Shown piece after piece: positions 4,371-10,879 of a stretch of 14,619 nucleotides of DNA. The translations under genes were made by a program, and so were the position numbers. Below the pieces are notes generated by a model. The model saw only the letters and a list, made by a program, of their open reading frames with translations, was not told the origin of the DNA and ran no database searches. Position 1 is the stretch's first letter. Each line of letters starts with the position of its first letter. The stretch lies in contig JBMFKU010000028.1 of NCBI GenBank assembly GCA_049971805.1, positions 1 to 14,619 on the forward strand, written 5' to 3'. This DNA is from Caldisphaera sp. GTDB taxonomy: Archaea > Thermoproteota > Thermoprotei_A > Sulfolobales > Acidilobaceae.

Positions 4371-7247
4371 TTAATGTTTCCTTAGAAATATTCCAGCTAT
4401 AGCTACAACAATTATTATCGCAGCTATACCCCCAACAAAAGTTATATTAGTTGATATTTTTGCATTTTCAATTAAAGGCCCATTAACAGTTACATTAGAA
4501 TTATTTGGTAATGTATAATTGCCAACCCATGTTAGAGTCTCATATATAGGCACTGATTCGTATAGCTTAATAGTAGAACCAAAATTGTACCAATTGTTTA
4601 TACCATTTATTGTTACCAAATATTGCTTATAATAATCTGCCGTTTCATTAATCATAGGATATAGCACGGTTATTGAACTGCTTTGATTCAATACGTATCT
4701 TTCTTGATTGCTAATATAAATTACCTCAGGTAAAGCAATTACTGTTTTATAGTTGAACCAATTACTTATTGTTCCGTTAGGTAGCTTGATAAAGACGTAA
4801 TATTGTTTAATATATGATGGAGTTAGGTTAAATGCATTGTTGACAACAACTCCATTTGTTTGGTTTATTATGTATCTTGTAACGTTATTTATATAAATCA
4901 TTTTGGGCAAAAATATACTAGATCCATAATTGTACCAACCACTTATTGTTCCGTTAGGCAATAATACATTGATGTAGAATTGTTTAATATATGATGGAGT
5001 TAGGTTAAATGGTGAATTTACATTAATTATTCTGCTTTGATTTAATACGTATCTTTCTAGACTACCATTATATATTATGGAGGGTAATGTAATTACAGAA
5101 TTTACATTGAACCAATTATTTATCGTTTGATTAGGCAATTTAATGGTTACGTAATATTGCTTGATATAATTTATAGTTAGGTTAAATGTGCTATTAATTG
5201 TTATAGTGTTGCTTTGATTTAATACGTATCTTTCTAGACTACCATTATATATTATGGAGGGTAGCTTAATGAGCATTCCTTTGTTAAACCAATTACTTAT
5301 TGTTCCGTTAGGTAACCTAATATTAATAAAATACTGGTAAGTGACTGAAACAGATATGATTATTGGGTTTCGTAAAATAATCTTACTTATATTTGAGTTA
5401 ATTGATTCTCTAGCAGTGCTATTAAAGTAATAAATGTTGTATATAATTATTTCTGTAGATTTGTTATACCAATCGCTTACTAATGTTGAATTAACTCCAT
5501 TTATTTCAGCAGGTATGGCATAATTTATCTTTAAATAATATTGAGTATAGAATGGTGGGGTAATAATCATTGAGGAGTTTATTTTATAATAGGTTTCTTT
5601 ATATATAACAAACCTTGTGTAGCTACCATTATAAACTGTTTGTGCTGGTATATCTATTATCGTCCCTTCATTGTACCAACCATTATTTATTTTTTGATAT
5701 AAATTGTTAATATAACCATTTAATTCGAATGGAAAAGTCACATAGAATTGCTGTTGATATACTGCAGTCACATTTGCATTAACATATAAGATTATTGTAT
5801 TGCTTTTAACTATTTGGCCATTTACTATTAAATATTTAAACAGCATCCTGCTGTTATTATTTATATAATAAATACTTGGAAACGTTAAATTGACTGGAGT
5901 ATTAAATAAATAATTTCCACTTAAATGAGAAAATCCGTCAACATAAAAATCAACTGGAGAAGTAACATTAACTATACCTCCTCCTACCGTCAATGATGAA
6001 GTAAACGTTTCTATTGGCATAGAACCTGCATATAAAGTTACTGATAAGTTGTAATTACCAGGTTGCAATATATACGATATTGGAGAGTATTGACCGAATG
6101 TTTGGTTATAATAGTTATTACCTGATATTGTTATCAACCATTCCCCGTTTGGAGGAGTTAAATATAAGGTCAGGTTATTTCCATTTAATTGATAATATGA
6201 TTTAGGTTGCCATAAGAATTCTTGTTGATTTTGCCCTTCAATCTGATGTACAATACCATTTTTATAATATTCTTGTATTCCATAATATTGATTTACATTT
6301 TCAGCGGTTACGCTAGCGGTAAATATAGAGGGCTGTAAACTTATTGCGTCAGGTACACTATAGAAATTACCATTATATTCGTAATAAAGGCCCATTGAAG
6401 CGTTCCAATTATATACAGTTAATTGAGACCCGCCACTTGCTCCTCCTACAACCCATTGTGTTACGAATGGATAATAAGGAGCGTATGAGTTTATTGAACT
6501 TTGAATTCCAGTTAAGAATTGTGGATTGCTAGACTTTACATAAACAGTTATTTTATCATATAAAATCCATCCTGAGTTAAAAGTAGAGTTCTGAAATTCA
6601 TAATACATATATATTTGTGGATAGCCATTGCTGCTCTGGTTTATAGTCATATATGCATATAAATAAAATGGAGAATTTGTTGAATAAGTAATAATATTAT
6701 TATTAGATAATGCCCAACTGTAATAAAATACCTGATTGTTTGAAGTAGAGAAACTACCATTTCCAGAGACAAGACTCTGATTTAAGCTATAGCTTGGATA
6801 AGTGCTATTCCACAGGTTATCTATAATATTTACATTATATACACCATTTATATAATAAACTTGAAAAACATCTTGCGCCCATAATGTCATACTACTTGTA
6901 ACGTTAAAATTTGAGTTTAGTTGAACAGAAAAAGCACTATTATTAATAGGCGCACCAGAATAAAAGCTACCTCCATAAAATGCGAAGTAACCTAATAGAG
7001 AATTTGTTGAATAGCTATATTCTATTAAGTTGTTATTTATTAAAGCTGATCCATTATCATTTATGCCAACACTTTCATTAAAGCCTGACTGCAAACCAAT
7101 TACTTTTCTTGCACTCATAGTTATATTACTTTCTTGACTTTCATATTTGCTTATTTTCATAGAATGGGATAAAGGCATAATTAATATCAACAGCAAAAAT
7201 AACGAAAGAACAGTTATCTTAAACCTTTTTGATTTACCAAAGTACAC
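4371..7247 (-). CDS. Thermopsin-like (peptidase A5 family) secreted, membrane-anchored protein with repeat stalk (958 aa)
   Basis: Basic + hydrophobic signal peptide; thermopsin-type motifs FSVQLN, WAQDV, IDNLWN and VGGASGG; many N-x-S/T sequons; repeated QYYV..W[YF]N units; C-terminal TM helix followed by RKH. GGTGG precedes GTG 7247. Confidence 0.82.
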   Translation of the reverse strand: MYFGKSKRFKITVLSLFLLLILIMPLSHSMKISKYESQESNITMSARKVIGLQSGFNESVGINDNGSALINNNLIEYSYSTNSLLGYFAFYGGSFYSGAPINNSAFSVQLNSNFNVTSSMTLWAQDVFQVYYINGVYNVNIIDNLWNSTYPSYSLNQSLVSGNGSFSTSNNQVFYYSWALSNNNIITYSTNSPFYLYAYMTINQSSNGYPQIYMYYEFQNSTFNSGWILYDKITVYVKSSNPQFLTGIQSSINSYAPYYPFVTQWVVGGASGGSQLTVYNWNASMGLYYEYNGNFYSVPDAISLQPSIFTASVTAENVNQYYGIQEYYKNGIVHQIEGQNQQEFLWQPKSYYQLNGNNLTLYLTPPNGEWLITISGNNYYNQTFGQYSPISYILQPGNYNLSVTLYAGSMPIETFTSSLTVGGGIVNVTSPVDFYVDGFSHLSGNYLFNTPVNLTFPSIYYINNNSRMLFKYLIVNGQIVKSNTIILYVNANVTAVYQQQFYVTFPFELNGYINNLYQKINNGWYNEGTIIDIPAQTVYNGSYTRFVIYKETYYKINSSMIITPPFYTQYYLKINYAIPAEINGVNSTLVSDWYNKSTEIIIYNIYYFNSTARESINSNISKIILRNPIIISVSVTYQYFINIRLPNGTISNWFNKGMLIKLPSIIYNGSLERYVLNQSNTITINSTFNLTINYIKQYYVTIKLPNQTINNWFNVNSVITLPSIIYNGSLERYVLNQSRIINVNSPFNLTPSYIKQFYINVLLPNGTISGWYNYGSSIFLPKMIYINNVTRYIINQTNGVVVNNAFNLTPSYIKQYYVFIKLPNGTISNWFNYKTVIALPEVIYISNQERYVLNQSSSITVLYPMINETADYYKQYLVTINGINNWYNFGSTIKLYESVPIYETLTWVGNYTLPNNSNVTVNGPLIENAKISTNITFVGGIAAIIIVVAIAGIFLRKH
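4626..5336 (-). repeat. Four tandem ~177-bp (59-aa) intragenic repeats
   Basis: Unit is QYxVxIxLPNGTISNWFN..LPxIIY...ERYVLNQS..FNLTxxYIK. Exact DNA matches: 5034-5086 = 5211-5263 (53 bp), 4802-4834 = 4979-5011 (33 bp) and 4756-4783 = 5287-5314 (28 bp). Offsets are 177, 177 and 531. Confidence 0.92.
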
Positions 7248-8051: not shown

Positions 8052-8084
8052 TTTATTATCATAAATATTTATTTTTAGAAAATT

Positions 8085-8435
8085 TTATTTTCTATTTTTA
8101 AAATTTAAAATTTCTCCAACAATACCTGATGCCGATAATTCTATCAACCCATATAATAGCGGATATACTAGTATTAATATTAACCAAGATATTCCAGCTA
8201 ACGCTCCAACAGTCTTAGCTAAAGAAACTAAATAATTTATTGGGTATACTAAATACATTAATAAAGAGCCTATAAATCCAATTAAAAAGCTTGAAATAAG
8301 CCTTAATGATCTTCTTCTTATTAATCCCATTATTATGCCTGGTATTATTCCAATCCAAACGTAAGGAATAAAATATGATAAGGCTAGAGTTAAAGCAATC
8401 GAAGTTATATATATTATTAAATTAGTCTTATTCAT
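8085..8435 (-). CDS. Small multi-pass membrane protein (116 aa)
   Basis: About 4 hydrophobic segments. GAGGTGG SD inside the end of the acylase gene favours ATG 8435, which follows the acylase TAA (8439-8437) after a 1-nt gap, suggesting co-transcription. Confidence 0.78.
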   Translation of the reverse strand: MNKTNLIIYITSIALTLALSYFIPYVWIGIIPGIIMGLIRRRSLRLISSFLIGFIGSLLMYLVYPINYLVSLAKTVGALAGISWLILILVYPLLYGLIELSASGIVGEILNFKNRK

Positions 8436-8436
8436 T

Positions 8437-10399
8437 TTATCCACCTCTAGGAATTAAATACCATGTAGCATTAACTTCAACAACAGGTGAAAATGGATAA
8501 TAATTAAAGTTTAGCCATGAATTTAGTTGCGTTTCAAACCATGGGCTTGCGGGATTTTCACTGGGCCCTCCTGGGAATATTGAATAAAATTGATTAGTTG
8601 CTGGGGAATCTACTATCCTTAAACTTGGTCCTTCACTAACAATTAGTGGAATAGAAATTGTACCATTGAAGTTAAAGTAAGCTGCTGATGGAGTAAAACC
8701 ATCACCCCATATGGGTATTGGGCCATAATTGAGAGATGAAATTCCAGCAGGATTTATGAGCTCTAATACATGTACGTTACCCCATTTCCAATTAGAAATA
8801 TTACCCAGCTTACTTGATAAATAACTCATTGCCTCATTATAAGACAAATTAACTACTTTACAAAAACTTCCATTAAATAATGATGAATTCGGATTATGTG
8901 TCGCAAAATACGCTAGATCGCTTGTAATTAAAGTATCAGTTCCATAAAAACCAACTGTACCTGTTAGCAAATTCTTATATTGGGTTAATCCATGTTCATT
9001 TAAAACTGGGTTAACTACATTATTTATTATGTTCAATAAAGTATATGTATAAATTGTTGGTGCAACCTCGTTTTGATAAAATGTATAATTCCATGCTGAT
9101 AACAACAAAACACCTTCTTTAAGATTATTTGAAAAGTTCTCATTTTTTAAGCATGAAACCATTACAGGATCTAATATGGAAGCCCATGAATCAGTTACAT
9201 TACTTTGCAAAGATTCCATATCTGAGATAGTCATGTTCCTATGAGAATTCAAATATCTATATATTGTTAACGCCCTTCCATCAGAGACCCAATAACCTCC
9301 AACAAATGGGTACGGATAATCTATAAATGCTGTTGGTTGATTTGGTGCAAAGGCAAAGCCCCTTTCAGGGTTAATTGATTGAGGCAAGTAATTAAACGGT
9401 ATATAACCAACAGGTTCATAATTAGGTATTGATCCATTTAAGATAGTTCTACCACCAACAACCTCTACACTTTCATTATTTGGTAATGTAATCCTTATTA
9501 AAGGATAGAGGCCCGCTGTAATAAATCCTGTCTCATTCTTTGAAACCATTGCTAAATTCTGTGTTGGCTCAACCCAATATCTTGCTGCATTTAATAATTG
9601 AGAGAAATTTGTTGAATTATCCAATAGGAATTCGGATATCAATGTTAAGAATGGATAATATTGATTTACCAAATAAAGGCTTATACCCATTTTTAATGTA
9701 TTGTTATAAGAAACTAAAGGCCCGTTATTTGTATAATAAATTGTATATTTTTTGTTCAATAAAGTAAAATTATACTCCTTTAAAGGTAACCATTCACCAT
9801 TAAATAGATAAGAATGGTTTTCCATATTTACAATTTCTAAATAAGCGTTGCTAGACGCACCTAAAGGAGTTGTCAATCCCCATGCAGTATTTTCCGTATG
9901 ACCTATCAAAACACCTGGTTCTCCAACTAATTCATAACCAGTTACGTTTAATCTAGGAGATACTAATTGTAATGGAAGCCATAATGACGGATCATATAAA
10001 GTTAAATGCGGATCGTTAGCCATCATTGGGTATCCAGTACTGCTGTAATTACCAGTAACTTCCCATTCATTGCTACCTAAATCAACAAAGCTTAATGGAT
10101 CTGAGCATATTTCATTAAGAGATGAGATAATTAATGGGATTGCCTTATATAAGGTTTCATTACTTAATCCATTTGCAAAATTGCTATAAAAGTTCAATGA
10201 CCAAAAATATGAAGGACTTATATTAAAGCTTTGAAGATTTAAGTTATTAACAGTTCCATTGCCTGGCATTGCTGTTAAAGAACCATTTGTATAATAAGGG
10301 TAATATGGGAAAAGTTCTTGAGTTAAATTGTAGCCTAAATGTGTATAAATTAAAGAAAGCCTTAGTTCATCGCAAAAACCTTTGGCTAATCCCCATGAC
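8437..10399 (-). pseudogene. Penicillin acylase family (S45, Ntn-hydrolase), 5'-truncated by an IS605-family element
   Basis: GSNEWEVTGNYSSTGYPMMANDPHL (beta-chain N-terminal Ser at 10074-10072), PGVLIGHTENTAWGLT, WKWGNVH and PGGPSENPASPWF. The signal peptide and most of the alpha chain are missing, and the ORF-track TTG start (10413) lies inside the element's left end. The remaining frame is intact. Confidence 0.88.
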
Positions 10400-10437
10400 A
10401 AAATGAACGACAAGCCTCGCCCCTTCTAGGGACGGGG

Positions 10438-10463
10438 TAAAGCTTTTAAATAGAGCTTTTAAA
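10438..10463. promoter_or_regulatory. Duplicated TATA-like motif inside the element's left end
   Basis: AGCTTTTAAA occurs twice (10441-10450 and 10454-10463). It reads as TTTTAAA/TTTAAAA, a TATA-like box on either strand. Confidence 0.5.
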
Positions 10464-10485
10464 CTTTGAAATACATAAAAGTATT

Positions 10486-10779
10486 GTGAAAACAATAAGG
10501 TGTGTGGGGAAGCCCATAATGGGCATACCATGTGTGTGTAGTGTCCCCACCCACACAGATACATATCCCTGAGTCCCTAGGATCTGGGAGCAGAGGGCAA
10601 CTCCCAGTGAGGGATAGGGGTAATGGGCTGAAGACCCAGCCAGTGGTCTACCGCTGGATGAACGGAGCGGGGTGGGTAATTCCCACTAGCTATGAGGTGA
10701 TGAAAATGAAGGTGGTAAACCACGAACCTGTGAGCCACCCTGGGGGAACCCTCGCCCTTCAGGGCGGGGAGGAGGTCAG
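10486..10779 (+). pseudogene. tnpB: tnpB remnant (5' leader fused to 3' tail; nuclease domains deleted)
   Basis: VGKPIMGIP / VSPPTQ (resembles, from recall, the extreme N-terminus of crenarchaeal tnpB ORFs) joins at about 10560 to HIPESLGSGSRGQLPVRDRGNGLKTQPVVYRW...GTLAL. No RuvC or zinc-finger motifs remain. Confidence 0.7.
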
Positions 10780-10799
10780 CCACCTACTGCTAGGCTTGA
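10562..10799 (+). ncRNA. Putative omega-RNA/reRNA (TnpB guide scaffold plus about 20 nt of flank-derived guide)
   Basis: Position at the tnpB 3' end / right end, where IS605-family reRNAs are known to arise. Stems: TATCCCT 10564-70/AGGGATA 10610-16; CTGGGAG 10584-90/CTCCCAG 10601-07; CCGCT 10651-55/AGCGG 10666-70; GTGGG 10672-76/CCCAC 10682-86; GTGGT 10712-16/ACCAC 10719-23; right-end hairpin. Boundaries are inferred. Confidence 0.55.
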
Positions 10800-10879
10800 T
10801 AAGTGGTTGAGGGCTTAGTCCCTACGCTTGATCATGAATGAAGATTAAGATGATTGAAATGAAAGTAAGAGCAAACAGT
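10780..10879 (+). mobile_element. Probable 3'-end remnant of a second, different tnpB element (IS607/ISC1904-like)
   Basis: Reads PPTARLDKWLRA*SLRLIMNED, then in another frame KMIEMKVRANS. This resembles from recall the WLRAKSL...KMIEMKV tail of Sulfolobales IS607-type TnpBs. It is not acylase sequence and is more GC-rich than the spacer that follows. Confidence 0.5.

Follow-up and report, generated by a model that had tools for sequence, protein, structure and literature searches.

A probable gene-less IS605-type mini-element with an omegaRNA-type scaffold in the genome of Caldisphaera sp.

The DNA segment between positions 10400 and 10779 on the + strand is probably a non-autonomous, gene-less PATE, or mini-IS, of an IS605-type tnpA-tnpB element which is widespread among thermophilic archaea. 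It is located in a window of 14,619 nucleotides, which is the whole stretch of DNA analyzed here, and belongs to a Caldisphaera genome (G000) of 1.52 Mb in 66 contigs, with 31% G+C and 96.6% completeness. The open reading frames inside the mini are 65, 68, and 92 aa long and gave 0 Pfam matches. The earlier note on this DNA described a 380-bp element with both hairpin ends and a TATA motif, and all of these were found at the places given there. The dense stems, which the note reported from the fusion point onward, were confirmed as a structured block of 220 nt. The features of the element are as follows.

10396-10399, + strand: TGAC, the target site / TAM, directly 5′ of the left end, found in all three complete copies in the genome
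10400-10779, + strand: mini-IS605 (PATE) of 380 bp, with boundaries set by BLAST comparison of copies
10414-10438, + strand: imperfect hairpin of the left end (LE), GCCTCGCCCC/TTCTA/GGGACGGGG at 10414-10437, read from the sequence
10444-10452, + strand: TATA-like box TTTTAAATA, 6 nt past the LE hairpin, an archaeal promoter-like motif
10500-10556, + strand: hairpin P0, with the arms GTGTGTGGGG / CCCCACCCACAC and the inner GCCCAT..GGGC, aligned to four full-length tnpB genes
10560-10779, + strand: omegaRNA-type scaffold of 220 nt, made of the tnpB 3′ tail and the right end, assigned by 88% identity, covariation, and the model R1
10750-10769, + strand: hairpin of the right end (RE), CCTCGCCC/TTCA/GGGCGGGG, with a UUCA/TTCA loop, assigned from the sequence and Rfam matches
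10780-10799, + strand: putative guide segment, the 3′ flank of the scaffold, assigned by position only

The left boundary was placed against the uninterrupted gene in the relative G002, and it is ambiguous by 1 nt because an A at position 10400 is present both in the mini and in that gene. As judged by BLAST, the other copies have their boundaries at 10396/10400 and 10779/10780. Both ends are subterminal imperfect hairpins without terminal inverted repeats, like those of the tnpA-tnpB elements. The LE hairpin is conserved at 77-89% in the LE matches and has a similar form in the full-length elements. The RE hairpin is 94-97% conserved across the order and is followed by AGGAGGTCAG, with the last base of the element at 10779. 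An A/T box occurs at the equivalent place in the displayed minis and full-length copies, which is weak evidence in a genome of 69% A+T. An A/T-rich leader extends between the TATA-like box and P0. The region of about 10500-10850 forms a G+C-rich island (54-59%) within DNA of 31% G+C, and no oligo-T terminator was found within about 120 nt of the right end.

The mini is one of many related copies. A 406-nt query gave 14 DNA matches in G000, three of which are complete from the left to the right end.

10400-10779 of the window, + strand: this mini
C18:27161-27522: complete copy, 78% identity
C18:17480-17815: complete copy

Each of the three has TGAC in front, carries the common scaffold 3′ end GGAGGTCAG, and continues into an unrelated 3′ flank. 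A covariance model of the 220-nt scaffold block (R1) scored the scaffold of the mini at 265 bits and matched 17 places in G000 with E values no higher than 0.01, and 10 of these reached at least 50 bits. The DNA search, covering G000 and 40 relatives, found matches in 16 of the 41 genomes, including all six congeners, and R1 matched 51 of 101 genomes and 25 of 47 genera of the order. A 23-letter core motif was present in 50 stretches, whose sources cover many groups of thermophilic archaea, among them Caldisphaera, Acidilobus, Sulfolobales, Thermoproteales, Archaeoglobi, Thermococcus, and Korarchaeia-type MAGs. The BLASTN comparison proposed in the earlier note thus returned further complete copies in G000 and the same architecture in relatives, and the mini is not a single-copy random deletion product. 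No clean empty sites were found for the two C18 copies: one flank of each has congener orthologues, and the other was not found or is far away.

The proteins which would be required to mobilize and use such an element were searched for in the same genome. The Pfam family Y1_Tnp gave 0 matches for TnpA, and an intact TnpB was not found in G000, only fragments or pseudogenes; in a 66-contig, 96.6%-complete draft, this is to be read as not found and not as absent. The family OrfB_IS605 gave 0 matches over the cut-off, and a search with the TnpB zinc-ribbon family returned two short pieces at contig ends. Six matches were obtained with a full-length TnpB query of the G016 type, all with stops or with open frames of at most 124 aa, and tblastn with four TnpB types aligned at most 122 aa per piece. 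The best TnpB piece in G000 is frameshifted and ends in another gene. The lack of a cognate intact TnpB, which the earlier note had named as evidence against its own reading, is therefore what this assembly presents. An intact IS605 may have been left unbinned, because the draft resembles a metagenome bin in which many contigs end in these repeats. Among sequencing runs, hot-spring DNA runs contained 0.58, 0.49, and 0.24 of the words searched, and six metatranscriptome runs contained 0.04-0.05, shares too small to count as evidence of a transcript. Among the six congeners searched, tnpA is present in three, namely G001, G003, and, as a partial copy, G005. The relatives G002 and G006 carry scaffold-bearing minis, with one weak TnpB match in G002 and 0 in G006.

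Since TnpA and an intact TnpB were not found and the copies are old, being only about 78-80% alike within G000, the mini is most likely an orphan at present in this genome. Its present activity in G000 is rather unlikely, and we infer that it would be usable only on the entry of a compatible IS605 or another source of TnpB into the cell. The proposal that the copies act as a guide array for TnpB made elsewhere holds up in part: among the 27 copies listed, nearly every 3′ flank is different, and the effector itself was not found intact in G000. The same observations may be explained by a purely selfish, decaying MITE, in which the scaffold was spared by chance, gives no useful RNA, and inherited its structure from full-length parents. 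The missing TnpA and TnpB and the low identity between copies agree with such decay, as do the several copies in G000 which are visibly eroded (20-125 bits with R1) and the complete congener genome G005, in which only degraded tnpA and tnpB and weak scaffold copies are left. The comparison of RNA structure between the copies bears directly on this explanation.

By comparison of the copies, the scaffold and P0 were both shown to keep their base pairing by compensatory change. The alignment contained 27 distinct copies from four genomes, taken from 31 BLAST hits after four which were truncated or under about 70% identical had been dropped. The structure consisted of eight helices drawn from the sot0042 architecture and the MFE fold, and the control was the same structure with the partners slid by 1-3 columns. 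Pairing was observed in 89.4% of the cells (37.8-50.3% when slid), changes on both sides in 19 of 45 pairs (4-11 when slid), and a covariation score of 0.256 (0.07-0.12 when slid); the shuffle control overstates the difference because of the kinship between the sequences, and the structure has an advantage over the slid versions in that one of these sequences contributed to it. The covariation in the stems, for which the earlier note had suggested a covariance model, is thus present. In the inner P1 helix, all seven pairs have undergone compensatory change. The pairing of P4 is kept across loops of differing length, and the indels of this loop have lengths which are not multiples of three. One-sided changes are often of the C-G to U-G type, which is tolerated only in an RNA of the + strand. 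Part of the covariation may date from a time when the scaffolds still belonged to full-length elements. TnpA needs the end hairpins only, yet the whole 220 nt and the pairing of P0 are kept across copies which are 74-88% alike, and even the 11 copies with one common mini-specific leader show compensated differences in their P1 stems; both observations argue against a decaying MITE.

Single-sequence folding gave modest z-scores (-2.05 and -2.83), and the single hairpins folded as DNA no better than shuffles (z -0.7 and -0.8), so that the structural evidence is comparative and not thermodynamic. Two other approaches were discarded: an RNAalifold consensus (-18.4 kcal/mol) missed obvious local hairpins, and an all-pairs helix scan was too noisy in the G/C-rich sequence. 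The arms of P0 form at least seven pairs, with one mismatch allowed, in 24 of the 27 copies with 11 different arm sequences, a measure which is only moderately discriminating because a swapped-arm control reaches at least seven pairs in 47%. In all four full-length tnpB genes compared (L132, L136, L140, and L143), a 12-bp stem, CCCTATGCGGGG / CCCCGCATAGGG, is built from the codons of the two zinc-finger halves. Its arms covary between elements, which suggests an RNA structure overlapping with protein coding.

The scaffold is related to known archaeal RNAs. On the + strand, Rfam matches were obtained to HgcC (RF00062; 41.8 bits, E 7.5e-7, below the gathering threshold of 50) and to sot0042 (RF02656; 36 bits, E 2.1e-6, below the gathering threshold of 88). 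Both families are described as RNAs of the 3′ ends of IS1341-type tnpB with a UUCA-loop hairpin (PMC4615843). The mini shares with them this RE hairpin, the GGAGGUCAG end, the upstream stems, and the origin from the tnpB 3′ end, and intergenic PATE-derived versions of them are known. It differs from both in scoring below the gathering thresholds, in the elaborated inner P1 and P4, and in its 5′ domain. A TnpB-independent small RNA of the HgcC/sotRNA type, kept for the use of the host, for example as a regulator, would explain how the scaffold persists without TnpB, and scaffold-bearing minis do occur in the TnpB-poor G000, G002 (one weak match), and G006 (0 matches). Overexpression of sotRNA and PATE-derived RNA was also reported to improve the growth of Halobacterium (PMC4615843). 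Such a host RNA is very improbable here: the copies have no conserved genomic position or target, their flanks nearly all differ, and the distribution of the scaffold tracks that of the IS family. The sotRNA class has, moreover, since been explained as TnpB guide RNA in the accounts of PMC8612924 and PMC10055086.

The mini is derived from tnpB. The homology to the tnpB 3′ end starts exactly at 10560 and reaches 88% over 226 nt (from query position 176 of the stretch which begins at 10385). The frame of the mini from 10560 reads HIPESLGSGSRGQLPVRDRGNGLKTQPVVYRW, and the tail of the full-length TnpB reads HIPESLGSGSGGQLPVRDRGNGLKTQPVVYRW, or, over a longer stretch, ...NILHIPESLGSGSGGQLPVRDRGNGLKTQPVVYRW... 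The junction with the tnpB tail, which the earlier note had placed at about 10560, is therefore exact. The sequence to the left of it was taken for a leader in that note, which proved wrong. An alignment of four full-length genes, one simple deletion derivative, and seven minis places the zinc-finger codons of tnpB (C-G-E...C-P-R/H) at 10500-10556, and the true junction of leader and tnpB lies near 10499/10500. Between P0 and 10560, about 45 nt encoding ...GKVINADLNGAINIL with the RuvC-III aspartate are absent from all seven aligned minis. Because the segment 10500-10556 is derived from tnpB and is followed by this gap, the mini results from several internal deletions and not from one. The alignment points to at least two, and probably three. 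The earlier view that a deletion removed the protein and spared the RNA scaffold is accordingly right about the outcome, a protein-less element with the whole scaffold kept, and wrong about a single event. A graded series is seen, which leads from the full-length elements through the simple deletion derivative to the minis. The loss of the unstructured spacer of about 45 nt, with retention of P0 and the scaffold in minis across several of the order's families, also speaks against a decaying MITE, which is unlikely when this is taken together with the compensated stems.

A full-length parent of the gene-less PATE was sought, as the earlier note had proposed, and such an element was found in G109, a 2.7-Mb genome of another family with 17 high-scoring scaffold copies. 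One of these copies (L132) is a complete IS605, which contains, in order, TGAC, the LE hairpin, the A/T box, tnpA (Y1), a tnpB of 438 aa, and the RE. Its tail and RE are 88% identical to the mini over 10560-10779. Two congeners also carry tnpA-tnpB elements (G003:C56 and G001:C63), in which the RE end is as in the mini and the scaffold is shorter. The elements of G003 with a 459-aa TnpB were rejected as parents, as only their last 35-60 nt are in common with the mini. A copy of the G016 tnpB leader was likewise rejected as the source of the mini leader, since no similarity was found.

Two observations on related elements may be added. In a tnpB-only element of G016 (L047, G016:C7, about 730-860), a frame of about 49 codons is located between the LE and tnpB and overlaps the tnpB start; judged by eye from a hand translation, it is possibly a candidate ribbon-helix-helix-like protein. 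In G000 itself, C6:4415-5022 is an internally deleted element of the A/T-rich, 459-aa TnpB type, in which the LE is followed by codons of about 63-151 joined to about 366-456. The formation of deletion derivatives is thus not confined to a single IS605 lineage here.

The recognition of the target can be followed from the sequences in front of the left ends. In the IS608-type mechanism, the LE recognizes its target through base pairing. The mini is inserted directly 3′ of TGAC, its flanks are without target duplication, and the gene is uninterrupted in G002; TGAC also precedes the full tnpA-tnpB element. A pattern search across all of the collected sequence gave 41 distinct LE contexts, with TGAC accompanied by CAAG in the LE in 22, TGAT accompanied by CAAA in 15, and four exceptions, counts which are not independent as the copies are kin. 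Such covariation of TGAC/CAAG and TGAT/CAAA matches the IS608-type prediction of an LE reading its target by base pairing, a mechanism summarized in PMC10055086.

The genomic surroundings of the mini include a truncated gene on the left and a second repeat on the right.

8437-10399, - strand: penicillin-amidase-family gene, with its 5′ end cut off by the mini; Pfam matches it from profile position 133 onward
10780-10878, + strand: 3′ 99 nt of the unrelated protein-less repeat R2, which hosts the mini, assigned by copy comparison
G000:C4:5776-6046, C5:14173-14438, C1:52851-53116, and C6:56009-56271: full R2 copies

The amidase orthologue in G002 has 855 aa, compared with 659 aa here, and the flank of 501 nt is 100% identical. 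The gene is cut exactly at TGAC, because the G002 flank is identical to that point and then continues with the gene. The part missing from the gene comprises about the first 196 codons, including the signal-peptide-like start of the 855-aa orthologue, and the truncated gene is probably inactivated. A paralogous amidase region with 80% identity is found on contig C18, beside another mini copy. The segment C18:24028-27047 corresponds to the window at 8076-10400, so this gene neighborhood occurs twice in one bin at roughly 80% identity; the doubling is either an old duplication or the result of two related populations binned together. A 958-aa protein with a thermopsin domain is encoded at 4371-7247 of the window (- strand). 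This protein and the amidase, MFS transporter, and peptidase genes agree with an archaeon that is thermoacidophilic and degrades peptides.

The repeat R2 is 270-310 bp long and is represented in G000 by four full copies and at least 12 fragments. In R2, a TTTTTATAT box precedes a GC-rich core; many copies are present in G000 and G003, several of them at contig starts. In two copies, its 5′ end adjoins RE-like hairpins. Rfam returned no match to R2 with an E value of 0.1 or below. The sequence of intact R2 copies runs ...CCCATGAC/CCACCTACTG... The first 10 nt of the putative guide at 10780-10799 match four R2 copies with TGAC or TGAT in front, and the mismatches to these four copies are at guide positions 11, 14, and 20. 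Past 10878, the upstream region of the MFS gene begins, and in G002 R2 is absent there.

The amidase and MFS genes are not neighbors in G002, G005, and G006, and because the two flanks are not syntenic in these relatives, the context of the mini may be rearranged or mis-assembled. If it were mis-assembled, the amidase-mini-R2 junction would be a chimera, in which two near-identical minis, one in the amidase and one in an R2 repeat upstream of the MFS gene, were collapsed and joined, with the element itself being real. The two flanks are indeed on different contigs or far apart in the three relatives, identity to G002 is 100% in the left flank and 96% in the right one, and the 5′ part of the amidase is absent from an assembly which looks like a hot-spring metagenome bin with many contigs ending in these repeats. 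Assemblers, however, usually break at repeats instead of joining across them. The assembly contains no second near-identical mini (the best other copy has 78%), and a genuine deletion or a recombination of two copies would leave an arrangement of this kind as well. A chimera is therefore possible and, on balance, doubtful. Beside it stands the recombination of two minis, one in the amidase and one in R2, with the loss of the interval between them; the reciprocal product, with the 5′ part of the amidase beside a mini, was not found in the assembly, which contains only the 80% paralogue on C18.

The way in which a gene-less PATE of this kind could work may be outlined from its parts. The LE-proximal A/T box, which is located before tnpA in the full elements, would start a transcript near 10475, which would run through P0 and the scaffold into the 3′ flank. 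TnpB made elsewhere would bind the scaffold, and the RNA would be trimmed to an omegaRNA with a guide from 10780 onward. The complex of TnpB and omegaRNA would then cut TGAC-flanked DNA which matches the guide. In the published model, such cutting restores excised copies by recombination (PMC10055086). The movement of the mini itself would be provided in trans by TnpA from an autonomous element.

A more far-reaching reading, which is quite improbable, considers the minis as streamlined guide-RNA genes. In that case, selection would have repeatedly kept P0 and the scaffold, excised the 45-nt spacer, and set both behind the LE promoter. The cassettes would outlast the nuclease and await a compatible TnpB from an incoming IS605, plasmid, or virus, or they would be adopted by the host as a TnpB-independent RNA.

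PATEs encoding omegaRNAs which are acted on in trans, as well as standalone omegaRNAs of OMEGA systems working in trans, are described by Meers et al. 2023 (PMC10055086) and Altae-Tran et al. 2023 (PMC10691335, citing Altae-Tran 2021), and an omegaRNA from a mini-IS is reported to work in trans in E. coli (10.1101/2023.11.20.567912). For Halobacterium and Pyrococcus, the account of Gomes-Filho et al. 2015 (PMC4615843) includes intergenic PATE-derived RNAs and RNAs resembling tnpB 3′ ends. The idea of a trans guide cassette is thus already in print, and the mini adds an archaeal example to a described class; the supplementary lists of published PATEs and standalone omegaRNAs could already include its family. 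Like these published cases, the mini is gene-less and multi-copy, has the LE and RE of IS200/IS605 with a scaffold and a guide in the flank, and depends on TnpA and TnpB in trans. It differs in its thermoacidophilic archaeal host, in the larger scaffold of about 220 nt with a 57-nt upstream hairpin, and in its several internal deletions. In the published cases, the effector is present in the same genome, whereas TnpB and TnpA were not found in this assembly. With the autonomous IS605 elements of the order (such as L132 in G109, G003:C56, and G001:C63), the mini shares TGAC, LE, and RE, as well as the tail/scaffold at 88% identity. It is without tnpA, the 45-nt RuvC-III stretch, and some 1.1 kb of tnpB. 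In the autonomous elements, P0 is present as the 12-bp stem inside the zinc-finger codons.

As found, the mini matters little beyond being one more archaeal PATE or standalone omegaRNA. Locally, it marks the truncation point of a penicillin-amidase-family gene. For the family, the omegaRNA seems to begin with a stem made from the halves of the zinc-finger codons, which would represent a dual-coding constraint of RNA and protein, preserved in the minis after the loss of the protein. The covariation of the LE base and the TAM base (TGAC/TGAT) would give a ready prediction of the TAM for editing tools from thermostable TnpBs. Guide cassettes appear to persist where no nuclease was found. If the minis were streamlined guide genes, the window copy would aim the nuclease at R2, four copies of which carry the TAM and the first 10 guide bases.
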